A stretch of DNA of 64,000 nucleotides, taken from positions 1-64,000 of the IMG/VR virus record IMGVR_UViG_3300042922_000661; one strand, written 5' to 3'. Below are positions 8,521-40,756 of this stretch, in pieces. Numbering within the stretch: position 1 is the first letter of the stretch; every line of letters begins with the position of its first letter. The notes below the pieces were generated by a model. The model saw only the letters and a program-made list of their open reading frames with translations. It did no database searches and had not been told where the DNA came from. A program made the translations under genes and the position numbers. Source of the stretch: a virus.

Positions 8521-11500
8521 TTAGTCCTGCAGTAGTTCGTTGAGCGCCGGATCGTTGATGCTCAGTGTTGATGACTGGCGCGGCGCCGGCTGTGCTGTGT
8601 TGACCACTTTGTCCGGTGCGGTATCGCCTTTTTTCTTTGTGACGCCCAACAATGCCTCCAGCTGGGTGCGCATACCTTTGAGTTCCTTAAGCATGTCCTG
8701 CTCATGGTTGCCGTTGTCGCCGTTCATCATCGGGCGCACGCCGCTGCGCGGTAGATCGGTGACGTTCGGTATCTGCGCCGGGTGACTCAGCAGCGGCTGC
8801 TGTGTGGTTTGAGCTTTAGTCACGCTGCCGCCGCTCAGATATGCCTTACCGGCACTGGCCAGCGACTCTGTGCCGCTATCGAGCCAGCCGCCAGCCTTGC
8901 TGGTGAGCGGAGAAATGGCGCGCAGAATGCCCGGATCGGCAATGCCTGCCTGATCCAGTACACTGCTGATCATGTCGTTGCCGCTGAAGCCGCCAAGCGT
9001 CTGGCTGAAGGTGTCTCCCACGGCAGGCATAATTGAAGCGCCAACGGCTTTCACGCCGTCCATTGCACCAGCCATTACGCGATCAAACATGCCGCTGCCA
9101 CCCTGTGCCTGTGCAGCTGGCTTTGACGTGGCCATGGTGCTGGCCATGTTGATCGGGGTGTCTGACGTGGCAGAGTTTGGACGGGGACTGACGTTGCCGG
9201 ATGAGACGCGAGAGTTGGCGGCGGGCCGAGCATGGCTGGCAATCTGATCCGGCGACAGTGCTGCCAGCTGAAGGCCTGCCGGTAGCGATGCACCAGCGGG
9301 AAGAGACAGGCCGCTGGTGGGACGTTTTCGGGTCATACCGGCAACGCCTAATGATTCAGTCGCACCTTGCACTTTCCGGTCAGCCCACTCGTTAATTGCT
9401 TTAACCTGACCCCAGGCCCCCGCTCCGGCGTGTTTGATTTTGTCCACTGTTCCGGATGCAGGGAGATCTTTAGCCTTCTGCGCGGGTTTGTGTGTAGCTG
9501 ATGCTGCCGGTGCCAGTGCCGGTGCCGGTGCCGGTGCTGCTGCGGGTGCCGGTGCTGCTGCTGCTGGTGCTGCGGGTGCGGGTGCGCCAGCTGTCAGCTT
9601 CACTTTATCCCCAGCGGAGTAGAGCGAGTCCGCTGCCACTGGTGCCTGCCCTTTCTTAGCGCGTGCTTCGTTTACCGATTTAAGGGATTCGTCACTGAAT
9701 TTACCGCCAACCCACTTACCATTTTCGTTGTGGCCAATGGCGTTCATCATGAAGTCATTAGTGACCTGCGGGTTGCCGCCCTCGATGGTGGCGATACCGC
9801 GCATCATCTGTGTCATGACTTTTGGATCTTTCAGGTCCAGTTGCTGATCGCCCCGCACGCCCAGCTTTTTAGAGAGCGAATCCACGTATTGTGAGGAGTT
9901 GTTTTCGCTCTCAGGTGCATACAGCTTGATGATGTCCTGTACGGTATTGAGCTTCTTGTAACCTGCTGCTTTAGAGGTGCCTTCTGAATAGCTTGTCAGC
10001 TGATTGGCCAGCGCCCTGAATCCTTCCTCCGGCGTGTTGAATTTAGCAAAACGCGCTTCACCTTTGCCGTTCGGAGCTTCCAGGCTTGCGCCCTCTTGTC
10101 CGACATAATTCAGGTTGCCAAAGTTGTTGTTGCGGAAGGAACGGACCTTAGCATTTGCGCCGCCCACATTGAGATCCGCACCGATACTGTTTTTCGCAAC
10201 ATCGGCATAGTCAGCAGTGCTTTTACCCTGGGTACCTACGCCATCCTCGCCCCATTCGCCGCCCTGAAGCTGTGAGCCCAGCCGGTTAATCGCAGTGACG
10301 GTTTTCGTTGTGCCATCGGTGATAGCTTTCGTCTGCTCAGTACTGGTACCGGTCAGCTTGTCATACGCGCCAGCTGCGCTGGTTGAGAAGGCGCTGAACA
10401 TGTCGCCAACCTTCCCAAGCCCTGTATCCAGCCCCTTTGCTATATCACCGGTGTCGAACGTGAGCGCCTTCGCAACGCCATTCATACCCAGTGCCGATGC
10501 TCCGGATGCCAACAGGCCAGACGCGCCCGATACCAGCCCGCCCATGTTAAGCACGTTAGCGCCTGTGTATGCGCCCTTCTGTCTGCCGCTGACCGTCTGG
10601 CCGTCTTTAAGACCAAAGGCCTCTTTCTGGCCTGCCGTATCGTTATAACCCTCGTAGGCATCCATGCCCGCGCCGATTGCTGTACCCACCAGCGGGATAG
10701 CTTTAAGCATGGTTTTTCCGGCGACCTTCCCGGCCACCTTCAAACCGCCTTTTTCCGTGGCCTTTCCTGCCGCGCCTTCTGTGGCCTTCTCCGCTACTTT
10801 CGCCCCCTCCTTTCCGGCAATTCCGCCTGCAGCAATCGTTGCGCCGGCAGTAGTAGTTGTGGCTGCTGCACCGGCGACCGTTGCCGCCTTATTGCCACCC
10901 TTCAGCACATCCAGCGCCTTTGAAAGCAGGCCTTTCTTTTTGGGCTTAGGTTTTGACTTTGAGCCATCCGGCTTGTTTTTGCCGTCCGGAAGCAGATCAC
11001 CGGCAACGTCAGCCATATCGGCAGCAGCAGACAGCGCCCCGCGTTTACGGTTGCGGCGTTTGCGCCTGCCGGGGATCAGAGAGTCCATCAGCCCGCCGCC
11101 GCTTTTTCCGGAAGCGTGAGACAGCTTTTTGATTTCTTCCCGCACATCGTCCAGGCCATCCACAATGCGATCGTCATTAGCAGCGAGCACTTTGGTCTGT
11201 TCCTGCGTGACCAGGATTGCCTTAGCCTGTTGTGCGTTTTTGAAGCCGTCAGCGGATTTCGGTTTACCGATTTCTGGTGGCGTTTTGGCTTCAGTGGTCA
11301 CAGGCGGGTGCGTTAATGGCGGCTCCATTTTCAGCGCAGCGTTGCCTTCGGTTTTTCCTTGGATGAAGTTTTTCAGTGTGACGACGTTCTTCCCGACTTC
11401 AGCGGATATGTCATACATACCTTTACCCATCAGCCACAGCGGACCACCAGCAGCCGTACCTGCAATGTCAGCGCCGGACGACATGCCATCACTGTTAGTT

Positions 11501-12192
11501 TCGGTGGCAGACTCCAGCATGCTACTTAATGAGCGAAAAAATCCCTGCTGCTGTTTGTTTTCGGCTCGCCGTGCGTTCTTTTCCTGCTGTGCAGCTGATG
11601 CGTCTGCGGAATCATTACGGGCTTTAAACCGCCCGTCACGGCCTCTCCCCGGCATTTCGCCTTTAGGATTTTCGCTTTTCTCCTGGGTATCTTTTGGTGC
11701 TTTTTTTGGTCTATTTAAGGGTTTAAATGGTTCACTTTTAAGACCAAAACCACCATTAACTGTTAAATCTGACCTTAATGATTCTTTTATTGACCTTTTA
11801 AGGTCCGTTTCTGGACCTTTTTTAGACCTAAAGTCAGACAAACTTACAGAGCGAGCTATTTCAGGTCTTTTTTCGGTACTTTTATGGTCCTTATCTGGTT
11901 TTATTTGGCCCGATTTCGGTCTATTTTTAATTTCAGACCTTTTTTGGTTTGATTCAGGACCAATATTAGACCCAAAAACTACCTGACCACCCCCTTTTAA
12001 AGCGCCATCTTTTTCAGTGCCGCGCCCAGTCAGAGAGCGCCTTACCGTCATACCGGACGTGTTTTCATTGCCGCTCTGTACCTGGGATTTATAACCAGAG
12101 AGTGCATTACGAATTAGCGTTAGCTGTTTAAGCTCGGCCTCGCTGGCTTTTTCAATTGCATCAATGATGCTGGCCTGATCCTGTTGCTTCAT
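8521..12192 (-). CDS. sit: Tape measure protein with lytic transglycosylase-like domain (Sit)
   Basis: 1223 aa, Ala/Gly-rich; RNNNFGNL...F.TPEEGFRAL...YAPESENN lysozyme-like segment; Ala-Pro linker. Confidence 0.85.
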   Translation of the reverse strand: MKQQDQASIIDAIEKASEAELKQLTLIRNALSGYKSQVQSGNENTSGMTVRRSLTGRGTEKDGALKGGGQVVFGSNIGPESNQKRSEIKNRPKSGQIKPDKDHKSTEKRPEIARSVSLSDFRSKKGPETDLKRSIKESLRSDLTVNGGFGLKSEPFKPLNRPKKAPKDTQEKSENPKGEMPGRGRDGRFKARNDSADASAAQQEKNARRAENKQQQGFFRSLSSMLESATETNSDGMSSGADIAGTAAGGPLWLMGKGMYDISAEVGKNVVTLKNFIQGKTEGNAALKMEPPLTHPPVTTEAKTPPEIGKPKSADGFKNAQQAKAILVTQEQTKVLAANDDRIVDGLDDVREEIKKLSHASGKSGGGLMDSLIPGRRKRRNRKRGALSAAADMADVAGDLLPDGKNKPDGSKSKPKPKKKGLLSKALDVLKGGNKAATVAGAAATTTTAGATIAAGGIAGKEGAKVAEKATEGAAGKATEKGGLKVAGKVAGKTMLKAIPLVGTAIGAGMDAYEGYNDTAGQKEAFGLKDGQTVSGRQKGAYTGANVLNMGGLVSGASGLLASGASALGMNGVAKALTFDTGDIAKGLDTGLGKVGDMFSAFSTSAAGAYDKLTGTSTEQTKAITDGTTKTVTAINRLGSQLQGGEWGEDGVGTQGKSTADYADVAKNSIGADLNVGGANAKVRSFRNNNFGNLNYVGQEGASLEAPNGKGEARFAKFNTPEEGFRALANQLTSYSEGTSKAAGYKKLNTVQDIIKLYAPESENNSSQYVDSLSKKLGVRGDQQLDLKDPKVMTQMMRGIATIEGGNPQVTNDFMMNAIGHNENGKWVGGKFSDESLKSVNEARAKKGQAPVAADSLYSAGDKVKLTAGAPAPAAPAAAAPAPAAAPAPAPALAPAASATHKPAQKAKDLPASGTVDKIKHAGAGAWGQVKAINEWADRKVQGATESLGVAGMTRKRPTSGLSLPAGASLPAGLQLAALSPDQIASHARPAANSRVSSGNVSPRPNSATSDTPINMASTMATSKPAAQAQGGSGMFDRVMAGAMDGVKAVGASIMPAVGDTFSQTLGGFSGNDMISSVLDQAGIADPGILRAISPLTSKAGGWLDSGTESLASAGKAYLSGGSVTKAQTTQQPLLSHPAQIPNVTDLPRSGVRPMMNGDNGNHEQDMLKELKGMRTQLEALLGVTKKKGDTAPDKVVNTAQPAPRQSSTLSINDPALNELLQD
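11700..11990. repeat. Helically phased GACC/GGTC plus A/T-tract array inside sit
   Basis: About 20 GG/CC-centred cores, 14 of them exact GACC/GGTC, mostly 10-12 bp apart and separated by A/T tracts; AT-rich island in a GC-rich gene. Confidence 0.75.
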
Positions 12193-25299: not shown

Positions 25300-26700
25300 G
25301 TGAAATCTTACAAGGTAGTTAAAATGAGCCAACTAAACAGTCAATCTGATTTCCTTAAAGGCTTTACCCATGAAAATGATATTTTTAAAAGAGTAAACTT
25401 CTATCAAAGCCTACTTAAAATAATAATAAACTCACCGGAAAAAAATCTAGTTTTTGCACTTGATGACCGGTGGGGGCAAGGAAAGACAAGTTTTGTAAAA
25501 ATGATGCACGGAGAAATAAATAAAGACCCAGAAAGCAATCTCAATGTGATATATTTTGATGCATATGAAAACGACTATTACTCAGACCCATTCATTCCTA
25601 TAGTTGCTGAATTTCATGCGCTTTTTAGCGAGCCAAATAGTAAGCTGAATGCTTATAAAGATTCTTTCTTGTCAGTGTCCAAACGGGTAGGGGCTGCAGC
25701 ACTTATTGGAACATTAAAAGCTGTAATCACGACATCAACCGCTAGTATAGTTGATGGTGGCAAGGTGATTGATGCTGCCGTTGATGCTGCTAAAAGCACC
25801 TCAGATGACTTGACAAACAGCCTCCAGGCTTACGTTGAAAAGAAAATAACTGCAGCAAAAGAAGAGAAAGCTGACATAGCTACCTTTAAAAAAACTCTGA
25901 GTGATATTCACGAAAAATCAGGGAAGAAAACTATTTTTATCATCGATGAGTTAGATAGAGCAAAACCTGATTTTTCCCTTGATTTGCTTGAGAAAATAAA
26001 ACATCTTTTTTCTGTGGAGGGGGTTATTTTTATATTAGTTATGAATAAAGGACAGTTTGAAAAATGCATTGAAAAAAGATACGGAAGCATTGATTCAAAA
26101 TTATACCTTAATAAATTCATAAACTATTTCATAACTTTGCCAAAAACTAAAAACTCTGACATTGACATTAATGATCCGACGATTAAGACAACTATATATA
26201 ATTATATAAGAGTCATGCCAGAAGCGAACAAGCTTTTTGATATAGGTTCAGTTATTCACATTAGTTTAAGTTACCTAATTGAAATTAACAACTGTTCGCT
26301 TAGAGAAGCTGAGCGGTGCATTTCCTTAATGAATTTATTTTCTAACAAAAGCGGCAAAATAGAATATAACATGACCTATTCAGTCGCTCTGTCAATGATG
26401 ATTTTTTTGAAAGTATATGACCCAACGCTCCTTGAAAATTTTCTAGCCAAAAAAGATCAAGCCGGTTTCATTTTGCGGCAGTTACAGCTTGAGTCAGCCC
26501 AAGAGTTAATTCCATCAACTGCAAAAATACATAGCATCATGCAAAATTTAATAAAGTTCCATTACTACACCCGTTCTGAAGTAGAAACGAATATAAAGAG
26601 AATAACAGAAACCTTACGCGACTTGCTGGCCCATTCCCATTATCCGTCTAATCCATTTCTATATTTTAAAGATAGCTTTGATAAATTTTCAATTGAGTAG
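25300..26700 (+). CDS. KAP-family P-loop NTPase
   Basis: Walker A DDRWGQGKTS, FDAYENDY, Walker B IFIIDELDR, YLNKFI; AT-rich; the start may be ATG 25324. Confidence 0.9.
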   Translation: MKSYKVVKMSQLNSQSDFLKGFTHENDIFKRVNFYQSLLKIIINSPEKNLVFALDDRWGQGKTSFVKMMHGEINKDPESNLNVIYFDAYENDYYSDPFIPIVAEFHALFSEPNSKLNAYKDSFLSVSKRVGAAALIGTLKAVITTSTASIVDGGKVIDAAVDAAKSTSDDLTNSLQAYVEKKITAAKEEKADIATFKKTLSDIHEKSGKKTIFIIDELDRAKPDFSLDLLEKIKHLFSVEGVIFILVMNKGQFEKCIEKRYGSIDSKLYLNKFINYFITLPKTKNSDIDINDPTIKTTIYNYIRVMPEANKLFDIGSVIHISLSYLIEINNCSLREAERCISLMNLFSNKSGKIEYNMTYSVALSMMIFLKVYDPTLLENFLAKKDQAGFILRQLQLESAQELIPSTAKIHSIMQNLIKFHYYTRSEVETNIKRITETLRDLLAHSHYPSNPFLYFKDSFDKFSIE

Positions 26701-35639: not shown

Positions 35640-36506
35640 TTAAAAGCCAACTTCCTGCTCTTGTTGAGTCTTCTCAGCATTGATTTGGTCTACTTTACTA
35701 CTCACTTTATCAAGCCAGTTGAAAAGCTCACCAACATACTGTTTTATTGCTTCTATGTATTCGTTAATCAAAGACTCAGTAATTTTTATTTCCTTCCCAT
35801 CTTTATCACGACCATTTCTATGAGCCACGTGATGTCTTAAGGCCATGGCTTTATTAATTTTTTTATTTACATCGTGAGGTATATTAAGTATATGCACGTT
35901 ATGCACACCTAATATTTTAGCATAGTAAGTATTTACTTTTGGTATATTGTGATACAGCATTTCCGTTAATTGATAGTGGATTTTTTCATCTATAAAATCA
36001 GTAGAATTTTTTCTTAAAACTTCATTCAGCGTGAATTTTTGAGTAGCCAGTTCATCTATTCCATTAATCGCATTTTTCCTAAAGAAATCATCGGATAGAG
36101 TGACGTTTTTTAACATATCACCCAAACAAGATTCCATGAGGGTTACTGCATAAGAGAAACGCATCTTTAGGGCTATATCTATCAGGGTAGGATCTGAAGG
36201 TACAGGAAGGCTAAGTAGTTTATCTAGCTGATACTTGAATTCATAATAAAATTCGCTGAAATCATTTTCTTTTGACCAAACTATGTCATCTTCATAGAAA
36301 TAACTAGCCTCATCAATATATAACTCTTCGTCTATCTCACCTTGCTCCATTTTTTTGTCATATAGCTCAGCACACTCCGCCCATTCATCAGAATCTTCTA
36401 ATACTCCTTCAGCTAAATGTGCTTCAATCCAATTTCTTTTTTGTGTTTCTTCTAAATGGTCCATTATTCGATCTTTCGTTGCACCCATTAAACTATCCTT
36501 ATCCAA
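35640..36506 (-). CDS. HEPN-domain protein, putative RNase / anti-phage effector
   Basis: 288 aa, AT-rich; RHHVAH (Rx4H) followed by RNG; upstream T.ME..L motif; acidic N-terminus. Confidence 0.75.
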   Translation of the reverse strand: MDKDSLMGATKDRIMDHLEETQKRNWIEAHLAEGVLEDSDEWAECAELYDKKMEQGEIDEELYIDEASYFYEDDIVWSKENDFSEFYYEFKYQLDKLLSLPVPSDPTLIDIALKMRFSYAVTLMESCLGDMLKNVTLSDDFFRKNAINGIDELATQKFTLNEVLRKNSTDFIDEKIHYQLTEMLYHNIPKVNTYYAKILGVHNVHILNIPHDVNKKINKAMALRHHVAHRNGRDKDGKEIKITESLINEYIEAIKQYVGELFNWLDKVSSKVDQINAEKTQQEQEVGF

Positions 36507-37384: not shown

Positions 37385-37603
37385 TTATCCACTTATCCAC
37401 TGGATAGATCATATAAATCGATCCTATAGAGATCATATATAGATCAAATAAGATCACTGTTGCTACAACCCAATGATTTTAATAGCAAATAATGCATTTT
37501 GCGTTGCTGGTTTCATGGTAAATGTTGTTGGTTTCATGGTAAATGTTGCTGGATTCATGGTGAATGTTGTTGGTTTCATGGTAGGGTGTTGCTGGTTTCA
37601 TGG
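37385..37603 (+). other. Plasmid replication origin (oriR-like)
   Basis: Tandem DnaA-box-like TTATCCAC (37385-37401), five GATC sites (37407-37455), an AT-rich spacer, then five iterons; same layout as P1 oriR. Confidence 0.9.
37503..37603 (+). repeat. Origin iterons (5 direct copies)
   Basis: GTTG(C/T)TGG(T/A)TTCATGG at 37503, 37524, 37545, 37566 and 37588 (21-22-bp period). Confidence 0.95.
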
Positions 37604-37647
37604 CAGGACCCTAAATTACCCACATTGACCGAGAGAAGGCTCTTTCG

Positions 37648-38529
37648 ATGGAAAATGACGACGAAATCAAGACGATAGGTGATGCTCTTGTATACAGCTC
37701 TGAGCAAGAAGAAAAAAGTTATACACTGACACCTACCTCTAATCGGACTGTCCAGCCGATCGCGTTGATGCGTTTGGGTGTATTTGTGCCTGCTGTTCGC
37801 AATAAGCCCCAGCGCGGTAATGCCGTTATCGATGCCTCCGCAGATTTCGGGCAGCTTGAAATCGCTAAAGCTGAGGGTTACACCAATATCATGATCAAGG
37901 GCAGCAGACTTGATATGAGCACTGATTTTAAGACATGGATTGGTGCTATCCGGGCGTTCAGCAAATATGGTGCTGATAGTAATCGCATTAAGTTACCATT
38001 TACCGAATTTGCGAAGCTATGCGGAATTGCCGTAGATGATATCAACCAGCGTTCGCGTGATCGCTTCTTCAACTCCTTTCTAAGACTGGCCTCGCTTGTT
38101 ATCTCGTTTAAAAACAAAGACGGCAGCAAGGTGACAATAACGCATCTGCTTAATAGCGCTCATTTTGACACTGAGAAGGACGTGATTACTTTGGAAGGGG
38201 ATTCCCGACTATGGGAGCTTTATGCCTTCGATCACAAGGTATTACTGCAGTTAAAGGCTATCCAGGCACTGCCGCGTAAAGAGTCCGCCCAGGCGCTCTA
38301 CGTCTACATCGAGAGCCTGCCTACTGGATTCCTTCAAGTGTCTCTGGAGCGCCTTCGTGATCGCCTCAACCTGAACTCCACTATCAGCACACAGAACAAC
38401 GTCGTCCGTAAGGCCATGAAAGAGCTGGCTGACATTGGTTACTTGTCGTTTACGGAAGTTAAGAAGAATGGCGTGGTCTATTTCCAGATTCACTCACGTA
38501 AGCCTGACCTTCTGCCTAACAAAGAATAA
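37648..38529 (+). CDS. repA: Replication initiator RepA (P1/RepFIB family)
   Basis: 293 aa; TVQP.ALMRLGVFVP, G.RLDM.TDFK.W.G and AQALY..IESLP motifs; flanked by iterons. Confidence 0.95.
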   Translation: MENDDEIKTIGDALVYSSEQEEKSYTLTPTSNRTVQPIALMRLGVFVPAVRNKPQRGNAVIDASADFGQLEIAKAEGYTNIMIKGSRLDMSTDFKTWIGAIRAFSKYGADSNRIKLPFTEFAKLCGIAVDDINQRSRDRFFNSFLRLASLVISFKNKDGSKVTITHLLNSAHFDTEKDVITLEGDSRLWELYAFDHKVLLQLKAIQALPRKESAQALYVYIESLPTGFLQVSLERLRDRLNLNSTISTQNNVVRKAMKELADIGYLSFTEVKKNGVVYFQIHSRKPDLLPNKE

Positions 38530-38532
38530 TCA

Positions 38533-39003
38533 TTGCTGGTTTCATGGCAGGTGTTGTTGGTTTCATGGCAGCATTGCTGGAATACCGGCGATTAATGCTG
38601 GTGACTTGTGGTTTTAGAGTGTTTTTTGCTCGAAAGCCGCTTGTTACCATGAAACCAACAATATTTACTGTGACATAGCCACCGAATTACCATGAAACCA
38701 GCAATGTCCCTAAGCACCTGACTAACTCACCATGAAACCAGCAACCGTCTTACTGCAGCGGCTATGTCAGTAATAGTATGACGCTATGGCCGTGACTGAA
38801 GCAGGGGAAGGAGTATTGATGCCTCATGGTAAATGTTGCTGGTTTCATGGTTGGCGTTGCTGGTTTCATGATAAGCCCACCAACTGTGGCAGGTATTGAG
38901 CTTCATTCGAGGGGATAGGGGCTGTTTACCATGAATAGAGCAACGCCATAACAGGGTTTTTTGGCAACAATGATTTAAGCAATATTAGCCATGAAACCAG
39001 CAA
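38533..39003. repeat. Copy-control iterons (incA-like)
   Basis: Eight good and one degenerate copy of TTG(C/T)TGGTTTCATG in both orientations (38533, 38554, 38647, 38690, 38730, 38836, 38857, 38929, 38989). Confidence 0.92.
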
Positions 39004-39107
39004 TAAGCTGGCTTAATTATTCTGATAAAAATAGAGAGCTACTCCCAACAAAAAAGCCTCCGAAAAGACTTTTTTGTTAGCCGAGAAGAGCAAAAGCGCA
39101 GAAGCGA

Positions 39108-39908
39108 CTATCTTGACTTAAAGGGATATCCAAACGGCTGTAATCCAGGCCAAGCTCTACCAGATAGAGAAGGATGATCTGACGGATGCTCATCGTCTAC
39201 CGCATGGATATTTATAGGCTCAATACGGCTCGTCTCAGGATTCTGCACATTCAGCGTCAAGCTGATTTTTGTGAGGTCAGCACCTTTAGCAATAGCCAGA
39301 GTTAGCTGATGTTCCAACTGTGATACAAGCGAATCTTTGGCTGCCATGTTCTCAGTATTGGATGTTGGAACATACGCTGCGGCCATGCGTTCGGCTAGAG
39401 TTGGCACGTTTAAAATCTGCCACAGCTTATCAGTTCTCTTTGATCCATATGGTATACCTAGCATGCCGGGCAAATGTGCTTGAACACCTCGTAACACTTG
39501 AGCTTGACGACGTAGGTCGTCTATATTCAAAAACTGTGTAGTGAAATGATATTCTTCTTTCGAGGTTGCACCTTCTTCATCCTCTTCGCCTCGTTCGCTG
39601 CTCGTTAGGATGGAATACAAAGTTTGTGTGCTTAAAGCGTCAGTGTCGGTAATTAGTAAATCTTCCGGACTGATAGTTTTCATCGTGCCAATAGGTATAC
39701 CGTTAAGATCACTTCCTGATGCAGCATTTAGGGACGCTTCTTCTTTAGAATCAGGTTTAGTAGCCGCATTGATCACTACAGCCATCTCGTCCATAGAGCG
39801 CTCTGCAGCTCTTTTTACGATATCTTGCGCCTGCGGCGATGCCTCTGGGCCAAACAGGTCCAGAAGCGAATACTCATCAGGTGCAAAGGCTTCAGATTCA
39901 AATGACAT
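39108..39908 (-). CDS. Hypothetical acidic protein downstream of the zeta toxin gene
   Basis: 266 aa; AGGAG SD; 25 bp after the zeta stop; terminator at ~39047-39078. Confidence 0.7.
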   Translation of the reverse strand: MSFESEAFAPDEYSLLDLFGPEASPQAQDIVKRAAERSMDEMAVVINAATKPDSKEEASLNAASGSDLNGIPIGTMKTISPEDLLITDTDALSTQTLYSILTSSERGEEDEEGATSKEEYHFTTQFLNIDDLRRQAQVLRGVQAHLPGMLGIPYGSKRTDKLWQILNVPTLAERMAAAYVPTSNTENMAAKDSLVSQLEHQLTLAIAKGADLTKISLTLNVQNPETSRIEPINIHAVDDEHPSDHPSLSGRAWPGLQPFGYPFKSR

Positions 39909-39933: not shown

Positions 39934-40653
39934 TTATACGCCTATATGTGCCAAGTCATCAATGCAAGTGTAAGGGCAATGATGGGAGTCAGCCCAGGTA
40001 TCTTTTGTCACGTTTCGAATTGTCTCAATGCTGAAGCCCGTAGGATTGGCTGGTTCTCTATAACGACGGAAAACGTTCAATGTGAATTGACCATCATACT
40101 TTTCAAGAACATGCTTTATAACTTTCCTGCCGTTGATAAAGTTATTCTTCAGCACAGCAAGTGGGACAACGCGTGATCTCTGCTGCGCGTATACCCAAGC
40201 AATTGCCGGATCTAGGTATACATAATTTAGGATTAATGTGTAACCAGCTGCGATAGCAGCATCAAAGTTACTATCAGCGATACCTTTACTAGCAAACGTT
40301 GAGTCCATGATTATCTGATAGCGATTATCAAGAGCGCGAGCGTAAATGGCATTAACCATACTGGATGCAGGCTTTTGAAAGCAAACAGAATTTGCTTCGT
40401 TGTAATAGGGGAACCACCAGCGGAAATCATCGGCGTCAATACGGACAAAGTTCGTCTGCTTACCACCGAGGATGACATTATTTATTAATTCAGTCTTTCC
40501 GGATGCAGGTGAGCCAGCCATAAAAACTATCCCGCGTGCGCCCTCATTGATAGGCTTTTTTTCTTTAGTCAGATGGCTATATAAAACATCTTCTACAGCG
40601 TCTTTTACCTGTAGCCCCAGAGGCTCAAGCAAAGTTTTATCCATAAAATCCAT
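39934..40653 (-). CDS. Zeta toxin family P-loop kinase
   Basis: MAGSPASGKT Walker A, IDADDFR, I.DST, R.R.VP. Start moved to ATG 40653 (AGGA SD) because the longer ORF runs through a terminator. Confidence 0.85.
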   Translation of the reverse strand: MDFMDKTLLEPLGLQVKDAVEDVLYSHLTKEKKPINEGARGIVFMAGSPASGKTELINNVILGGKQTNFVRIDADDFRWWFPYYNEANSVCFQKPASSMVNAIYARALDNRYQIIMDSTFASKGIADSNFDAAIAAGYTLILNYVYLDPAIAWVYAQQRSRVVPLAVLKNNFINGRKVIKHVLEKYDGQFTLNVFRRYREPANPTGFSIETIRNVTKDTWADSHHCPYTCIDDLAHIGV

Positions 40654-40727
40654 GATTTCATCCTGACTGTGTGAATAGCTTAATATCGGCAAAAGTAGAT
40701 ATTTGTTCAAGTCGCTCGATTGAGAAT

Positions 40728-40753
40728 AAAAAAAACCGCCCGAAGGCGGCTTC
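40728..40753 (-). terminator. Intrinsic terminator of the small-peptide mRNA
   Basis: GCCGCC-TTCG-GGCGG followed by T8, a few nt after the peptide stop codon. Confidence 0.85.
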
Positions 40754-40756
40754 ATA

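Follow-up and report, generated by a model that had tools for sequence, protein, structure and literature searches.

IMGVR_UViG_3300042922_000661 is a complete 95,173-bp IMG/VR virus record with direct terminal repeats, and the window analyzed here is its first 64 kb (64,000 nucleotides). The gene order follows that of phage D6, a P1-like plasmid prophage, and the genome is a Pantoea-type P1/D6-like phage-plasmid. Because plasmids of 87-95 kb from Pantoea agglomerans, P. eucalypti and Pantoea sp. are its nearest relatives in culture (Sit identity 69-76%), its host is probably Pantoea. A long gene on the minus strand of the window (Table 1) encodes a protein with 40% identity to the D6 'tail injection transglycosylase, similar to P1 sit', and its location follows the D6 order pmgB-sit-pmgA-bplA. 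A Pfam search with this Sit protein returned no family, and blastn of the AT-rich island described below and of the whole sit gene against phages and plasmids returned only a 108-bp D6 match. Elsewhere in the genome, AT-rich cargo genes with a defence or addiction look are found at window positions 25300-26700, 35640-36506 and 39934-40755 and at genome positions 84088-86487, their products being a KAP-family P-loop NTPase, a RiboL-PSP HEPN protein, a zeta toxin and an AbiEii-like AAA ATPase adjoining an HNH protein.

Table 1. Positions of the sit array, its coding context and the plasmid replication module in the window.
Feature	Position	Strand	Basis
sit-like gene, 1223 aa, tail injection transglycosylase / tape-measure-like protein	8521..12192	-	ORF; D6 identity; D6 gene order
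AT-rich hypervariable cassette, Sit aa 56-182, predicted disordered	11647..12027	-	GC, nucleotide identity, pN/pS, pLDDT
Iteron block 1: units from 11696, 11708, 11719, 11729, 11741	11696..11751	.	hand alignment and PWM
TVNGGFG codons (VxGGxG in most relatives); array interrupted	11743..11763	-	protein alignment; 29-bp unit gap
Iteron block 2: units 11770, 11791, 11802, 11813, 11824, 11836; contains 14-bp palindrome GACCTTAAAAGGTC	11770..11846	.	TRF, hand alignment
SVSLSDF codons (SVSLxxW/F in most relatives); array irregular up to 11863	11830..11850	-	28-bp unit gap
Iteron block 3: six units 11864, 11875, 11886, 11897, 11907, 11918; strict 10-11 bp register	11864..11928	.	
Iteron block 4: units 11935, 11946, 11957, 11968, 11984	11935..11994	.	
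Plasmid replication module: Rep_3 repA 37648-38529, 21-bp iterons 37492-37604 and 38521-39004	37492..39004	+	Pfam Rep3_N/Rep3_C; repeat families

The original prediction described an AT-rich island in sit with GACC/GGTC motifs or near variants mostly 10-12 bp apart, and both parts of this description were borne out. GC content is 0.35-0.39 in the island and 0.57 in the remainder of sit, and the predicted positions comprise 14 exact GACC/GGTC motifs (11708, 11742, 11771, 11792, 11802, 11814, 11825, 11864, 11886, 11918, 11936, 11958, 11969 and 11985), the rest being one-base variants (for instance GGTT, GGTA, GGCC and GACA). Fourteen exact motifs within 11690-11990 compare with at most 6 in any other 300-bp stretch of the 95-kb genome and with a genome mean of 4.8 per kb. 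Read on the plus strand, each unit consists of a roughly palindromic core (GGTCY, RGACC or GGWCC) followed by a T-tract. Hand alignment of 22 units gave the consensus GGACCTTTTTT with a spacing of 10-12 bp in 16 of the 21 intervals, while TRF reported a period of 11 at 11784-11829. The stricter palindromic pattern RGWCY occurs 11 times in the island against an expectation of about 1, and most of these occurrences are separated by multiples of 11 bp. A search of the island for promoter-like sites came up empty. A restriction-site decoy was considered and rejected, GGWCC being present 64 times genome-wide (Markov expectation 89) with only 4 copies in the island.

The units of block 3 are read in differing codon phases, and the array breaks exactly over the codons of two conserved peptide motifs, SVSLxxW/F and VxGGxG, as expected for two overlapping constraints. 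A test of the periodicity against codon-shuffled controls had been proposed beforehand, and the motif passed it clearly: its Fourier power in the 10-12 bp band exceeded that of codon-order shuffles with a z of 18.8 (0/1000), and that of synonymous swaps and synonymous resampling with z of 5.4 and 6.9, respectively (0/1000 each). Synonymous codon choice thus sharpens the motif. Plain A/T periodicity reached a z of only 2.1-2.7 against the synonymous controls; the amino-acid sequence itself carries most of this A/T signal, and coding and DNA signals are therefore entangled. The earlier claim that the spacing is independent of codon phase needs qualification. Two phases are used by the exact motif (phase 0 six times, phase 1 eight times), but phase 2 never is, so that the motif is bound to no single phase and yet is not independent of coding.

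That the motif avoids phase 2 and that most of the A/T periodicity survives synonymous shuffling would also fit a periodicity imposed by the protein, either through an amphipathic helix (3.6 residues corresponding to 10.8 nucleotides) or through a selected 11-residue peptide repeat. However, the AlphaFold model has no helix over most of aa 56-182 (pLDDT 35-51). Residues 38-177, within the same pLDDT range, have almost no secondary structure, in agreement with the original prediction of a disordered peptide, and this predicted disorder argues against an amphipathic-helix origin. Furthermore, proline and glycine make up 20% of the residues, the peptide cannot be aligned between lineages, and the sit-type unit also occurs in non-coding DNA upstream of parM (see below). 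We therefore regard a protein-level origin as very improbable.

For comparison, 31 related loci were retrieved. The Sit proteins of the relatives are near-identical from 'GRDxxGRF' on and are conserved over the first 50 residues, while residues 56-182 are unalignable across lineages except for the two small motifs noted above. Nucleotide identity between the window and its relatives is 0.38-0.56 within this cassette versus 0.75-0.87 on both flanks, and in close pairs of lineage D pN/pS is 0.5-0.9 within the cassette versus about 0.1 outside. An AT-rich segment of similar length (GC 0.35-0.45) occupies the cassette site in every lineage of the clade; no AT-rich island was found in the sit genes of P1, a ParABS phage, and D6. 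Conservation in sit homologs was another check proposed for the island. A/T phasing at about 10.4-11.9 bp was significant against codon shuffles in lineages A (that of the window), B, C and F, and not in the D group or E. In loci L004-L019, the cassette and the rest of sit do not diverge in step, L019 and L015 having a pS of 0.21 in the cassette and 0.03 outside, and L004 and L019 having 0.07 and 0.12. Such uncoupling points to an exchange of the cassette by recombination. In a more distant lineage represented by Citrobacter freundii NZ_CP114569.1 (L097/L098), the AT-rich stretch in sit is only about 100-150 nucleotides long and carries GGAC/GTAC units resembling its own parM-upstream GGACTTTTTAAGTC; array size therefore varies between clades.

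The only recognisable partition system of the genome lies outside the window. Its parM gene (genome 65679-66803) matched Pfam StbA_N with 5.3e-19 and the ParM C-terminal domain with 3.1e-12, and it is 53.7 kb from the island (41.5 kb the other way round the circle). No match to ParB_N or AAA_31 (ParA-type ATPase) was found in the complete 95-kb genome. The original prediction had remarked that parS is missing from its usual place in the window, which is beside the point in a genome that lacks ParA/ParB and appears to use a ParM/ParR pair located outside it; a site of the P1 parS type, with ParB boxes plus an IHF site, was rejected for the same reason.

The second gene of this pair (genome 66805-67335; L036:2805-3335) starts a few nucleotides past the parM stop, the two being separate codons in all lineages. 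It encodes a protein of 176 aa with a conserved 90-aa N-domain (pLDDT 74-89 in the model), a Pro/Ala-rich disordered linker and a basic tail. The protein had no Pfam hit, a PDB sequence profile search was empty, and comparison of the model with the PDB revealed no ParR or ribbon-helix-helix fold (Foldseek best E 2.8, VIA-align wide best Z 4.6); it is from its position, size and architecture that we infer it to be ParR. The family is annotated as 'hypothetical protein' in RefSeq and adjoins parM in every locus examined, its PLSDB members being confined to Pantoea, Citrobacter, Leclercia and one Acinetobacter-labelled phage-plasmid.

Upstream of parM, four repeats spaced 11 bp apart (GGTGCCTTTTC, GGGTCTTTTTC, GGGCCTTTTTA and GTGGACTTAAT; genome 65574-65617) are followed at about 65650 by an inverted AGACCCGAAA. 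This set of 3-5 units has the same 11-bp unit as the sit array and, situated at the parM promoter, looks more like an operator. A terminator-like hairpin in these repeats was considered and rejected, being weak (three G-C pairs plus G-T pairs) and having no upstream gene on that strand. The parM-upstream segment is itself a variable cassette, located between parM and a conserved pac-like cluster of TGATCA boxes. The latter (Dam sites; genome 65530-65552, L036:1530-1552, outside the window) occupies the stretch from the start of pacA to the parM-upstream repeats. All relatives keep this cluster, and those of the L052 and Citrobacter lineages have four boxes. It recalls the P1 pac site with its arrays of hexamers, except that it is upstream of pacA rather than within it.

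Several genome scans connect the two repeat sets. When 12-mers of the parM-upstream segment were searched in about 940 windows of 300 bp, the sit island ranked at the top with 20 hits versus 16 for the next window. Conversely, when the 22 units of the island were turned into a PWM and the genome was scanned with it, the parM-upstream region had the highest density of any 120-bp window beyond the island itself, and with the RGWCY core the parM-upstream window ranked joint second with 6 hits behind the 11 of the island. The island and the parM-upstream segment are thus reciprocal best matches in this genome, and only 1 of 300 GC-matched random genome segments matched the island as well as the parM-upstream segment did. 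In an 11-mer scan, an unrelated run at 39782 outranked the parM-upstream region, which came second. A strict consensus, GGKBCYTTTTH, derived from three parM-upstream repeats hit the island once without mismatch and four times with one mismatch, so few because it is too rigid for degenerate units. Frame-independent homology between the lineage A and B islands, for which a gapped DNA alignment gave 61% identity with only 63% of columns in the same codon phase, was set aside because that alignment is too dependent on low complexity.

The comparison was extended by whole-genome word scans to eight complete genomes of the relatives, lineage A of the window among them. In four of the eight (A, C, D and D2), the sit cassette was the genome-wide best match to the genome's own parM-upstream segment, and in two (B and E) it was near the top, at about third; in the L012 genome and the L018 lineage, it showed no enrichment of the genome's own parM-upstream words. 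Nor were D6 parM-upstream words enriched in D6 sit. GC-matched random segments that matched the island equally well numbered, out of 300, 1 in A, 2 in B, 0 in C, 2 in D, 0 in D2 and 7 in E. With three word definitions fixed in advance, the diagonal sum of an own-versus-foreign matrix of six ParR lineages was reached in 2, 4 and 56 of 720 permutations, the last of these with exact 8-mer sharing. The repeat core changes from one lineage to another, and the ParR-like protein changes along with it in its N-terminal strand: a GGWCC-like core goes with the strand KLIKLTGL in lineage A, GYGC with KILRIASL in C, TTACC/GGTAC with QVLRLSGL in D, and GGAC/GTCC with QTIKxTGL in E and a Citrobacter plasmid. 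Each lineage carries its own core type in its sit cassette, examples being the AAAAAAGCAC units of C, the TTACCTTTAAAAGGTAA palindromes of D and the AAAAAGTCCCTTA of E.

These lineage-linked cores bear on two explanations in which partition has no part. According to the first, the array is a functionless by-product of an unconstrained, lysine-rich disordered linker that evolves by slippage of 11-bp units (33 bp in frame), its likeness to the parM-upstream repeats being due to chance or occasional gene conversion. The TRF period of 11 bp, with three such units making up 11 codons, is what slippage would leave; pN/pS near 1 and peptide disorder suit an unconstrained linker, and the two lineages without a match to their own parM-upstream words and the weak periodicity of the D group point in the same direction. 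By contrast, slippage leaves unexplained why the core matches the genome's own parM-upstream repeats and changes with the ParR lineage, why synonymous choice sharpens the motif (z 5.4), and why an AT-rich cassette of similar length is present in every lineage of the clade and in neither P1 nor D6. We consider such a by-product unlikely. According to the second, the island is a curved AT-rich site for some other protein (H-NS, IHF, Fis or a phage regulator) that silences or organizes the late tail operon in the lysogen. It is consistent with A-tracts phased at 10.4-11 bp within a GC-rich gene, with the island ranking first and strongest among the periodic windows of the genome, and with a ParR link that consists of no more than sequence resemblance. 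However, host nucleoid proteins need no lineage-specific G/C cores that co-vary with parM-upstream repeats, the island lacks a promoter-like site, and regions of still lower GC in the same genome (0.28-0.31) are without phasing, making this explanation unlikely as well.

A lytic origin was among the options of the original prediction, and an origin or packaging site within sit has the attraction that the island is AT-rich and repeated as origins are, and that P1 oriL provides a precedent of an origin sitting inside a gene. Yet the genome has its replication and packaging functions elsewhere. A RepL-like ORF is located at genome 88640-89527, 17.8 kb from the island (77.4 kb the other way), so that the island is neither within nor beside the RepL-like gene as the P1 oriL type would demand. 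The plasmid origin is located at the Rep_3 repA (Table 1), whose own 21-bp iterons at 37.5-39.0 kb are unrelated to the sit units in length and sequence, which also led us to reject a Rep_3 iteron origin in sit. With regard to packaging, the pac-like TGATCA cluster lies beside pacA (genome ~65530-65552). As the sit units resemble neither the repA iterons nor the RepL-like locus nor the TGATCA boxes, the lytic-origin option is not supported, and an origin or packaging role of any kind appears extremely improbable. The replication module itself is a P1-style replicon, with four or five iterons upstream of repA and at least seven downstream in both orientations, an incA-like arrangement; repA lies between tub and pmgB in D6, while here tub and pmgB are adjacent.

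The reading that we prefer, and that we hold to be rather probable, is that the island is a ParR-bound, parC-type iteron array, centromere-like and overprinted on sit. It agrees with the original proposal of a cis-acting nucleoprotein site on a virion gene, and of its options the parC-type centromere gains support from the 11-bp unit upstream of parM and from the lineage-linked cores. In type II segrosomes, one ParR dimer binds each iteron, with 12 dimers per helical turn, and the centromere is a single locus directly upstream of parMR that overlaps its promoter (PMC5016525); the parC of plasmid R1 (type II ParMRC) has ten 11-bp iterons bound by ParR. Like R1 parC, the array described here is built of short iterons spaced 11 bp apart, one helical turn, in blocks; the replicon encodes an actin-like ParM with a small downstream adaptor gene, and some repeats flank the par promoter. 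The array units match the par promoter repeats in A, C, D and D2, nearly so in B and E, and not in the L012 genome or the L018 lineage. Unlike R1 parC, however, the large array is 54 kb from parMR and within coding sequence rather than at a single locus upstream, its units number about 22, are grouped into four blocks and have a roughly palindromic core that occurs in both orientations, and its putative adaptor has no detectable similarity to known ParR proteins. It would thus work like parC while departing from parC in placement, being far from parMR and overprinted on a structural gene.

Other systems resemble parts of this arrangement. The ribbon-helix-helix protein Omega of pSM19035 serves arrays (parS1-3) of short direct and inverted repeats at several plasmid loci, so that one small repressor/adaptor combines regulation and partition on separate repeat arrays (PMC5016525); unlike here, the Omega arrays consist of 7-bp units, overlap promoters rather than a coding sequence and belong to a type Ib (ParA-like) system rather than to ParM. 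The N15 plasmid prophage likewise has centromere sites away from its partition operon, scattered in the phage genome (Ravin and Lane 1999, as cited in PMC5016525). These are single inverted repeats for a ParB-type protein (type Ia) rather than a phased iteron array, and they are not reported as a hypervariable coding cassette. D6, the closest cultured relative, has the same gene order and a ParM/small-partner module, with at least eight TCTCA-type repeats about 11 bp apart directly upstream of parM. D6 thus keeps its whole array at parM, whereas in the clade of the window parM is preceded by only 3-5 units and the large array is found in sit. No prior description of such an array was found in the literature searched.

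Since the sit repeats match the genome's own parM/parR-upstream repeats, the array probably offers the segregation adaptor a second and large docking site. In the mechanism that we propose, the roughly 22 iterons, arranged in four blocks 11 bp apart over the disordered N-terminal linker of Sit, would each be bound by one dimer of the ParR-like adaptor on one face of already curved DNA, which would be wrapped up as a ring or helix; by analogy, an array of about 22 phased units in 300 bp might form roughly two turns of a ParR helix. The resulting complex would act as a large centromere, second or main, for segregation of the plasmid prophage driven by ParM filaments, with the 3-4-unit set at the parM promoter serving mainly for autoregulation. 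The array may also, or instead, hold ParR in reserve or act as a transcriptional roadblock in the silent late operon. Partition specificity and incompatibility are set by ParR and its sites, so that the cassette would diverge together with ParR, and the peptide variation would be a by-product.

A bolder version, which we put forward only tentatively, is that in this Pantoea clade of phage-plasmids the principal centromere and determinant of partition incompatibility has moved from the par operon into a virion gene as a dual-use, hypervariable 'specificity cassette' co-evolving with ParR, its DNA being dictated by plasmid function and its peptide merely tolerated by the tail protein. On this reading, since the site lies in the late operon, late transcription at induction could also strip the segrosome and thereby couple partition to the lysis-lysogeny state. 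The existence of cultured Pantoea plasmids of the same clade, among them NZ_CP134741.1 and NZ_CP134736.1 of Pantoea agglomerans and CP009882.1 of Pantoea sp. PSNIH1, makes the idea directly testable. Annotators should be cautious, since what looks like a 'hypervariable disordered linker' may turn out to be a DNA element. If the proposal is true, a centromere can move into coding DNA, the demands of plasmid maintenance can make a segment of a virion protein hypervariable, and the partition incompatibility groups of phage-plasmids may be readable from the sit cassette.
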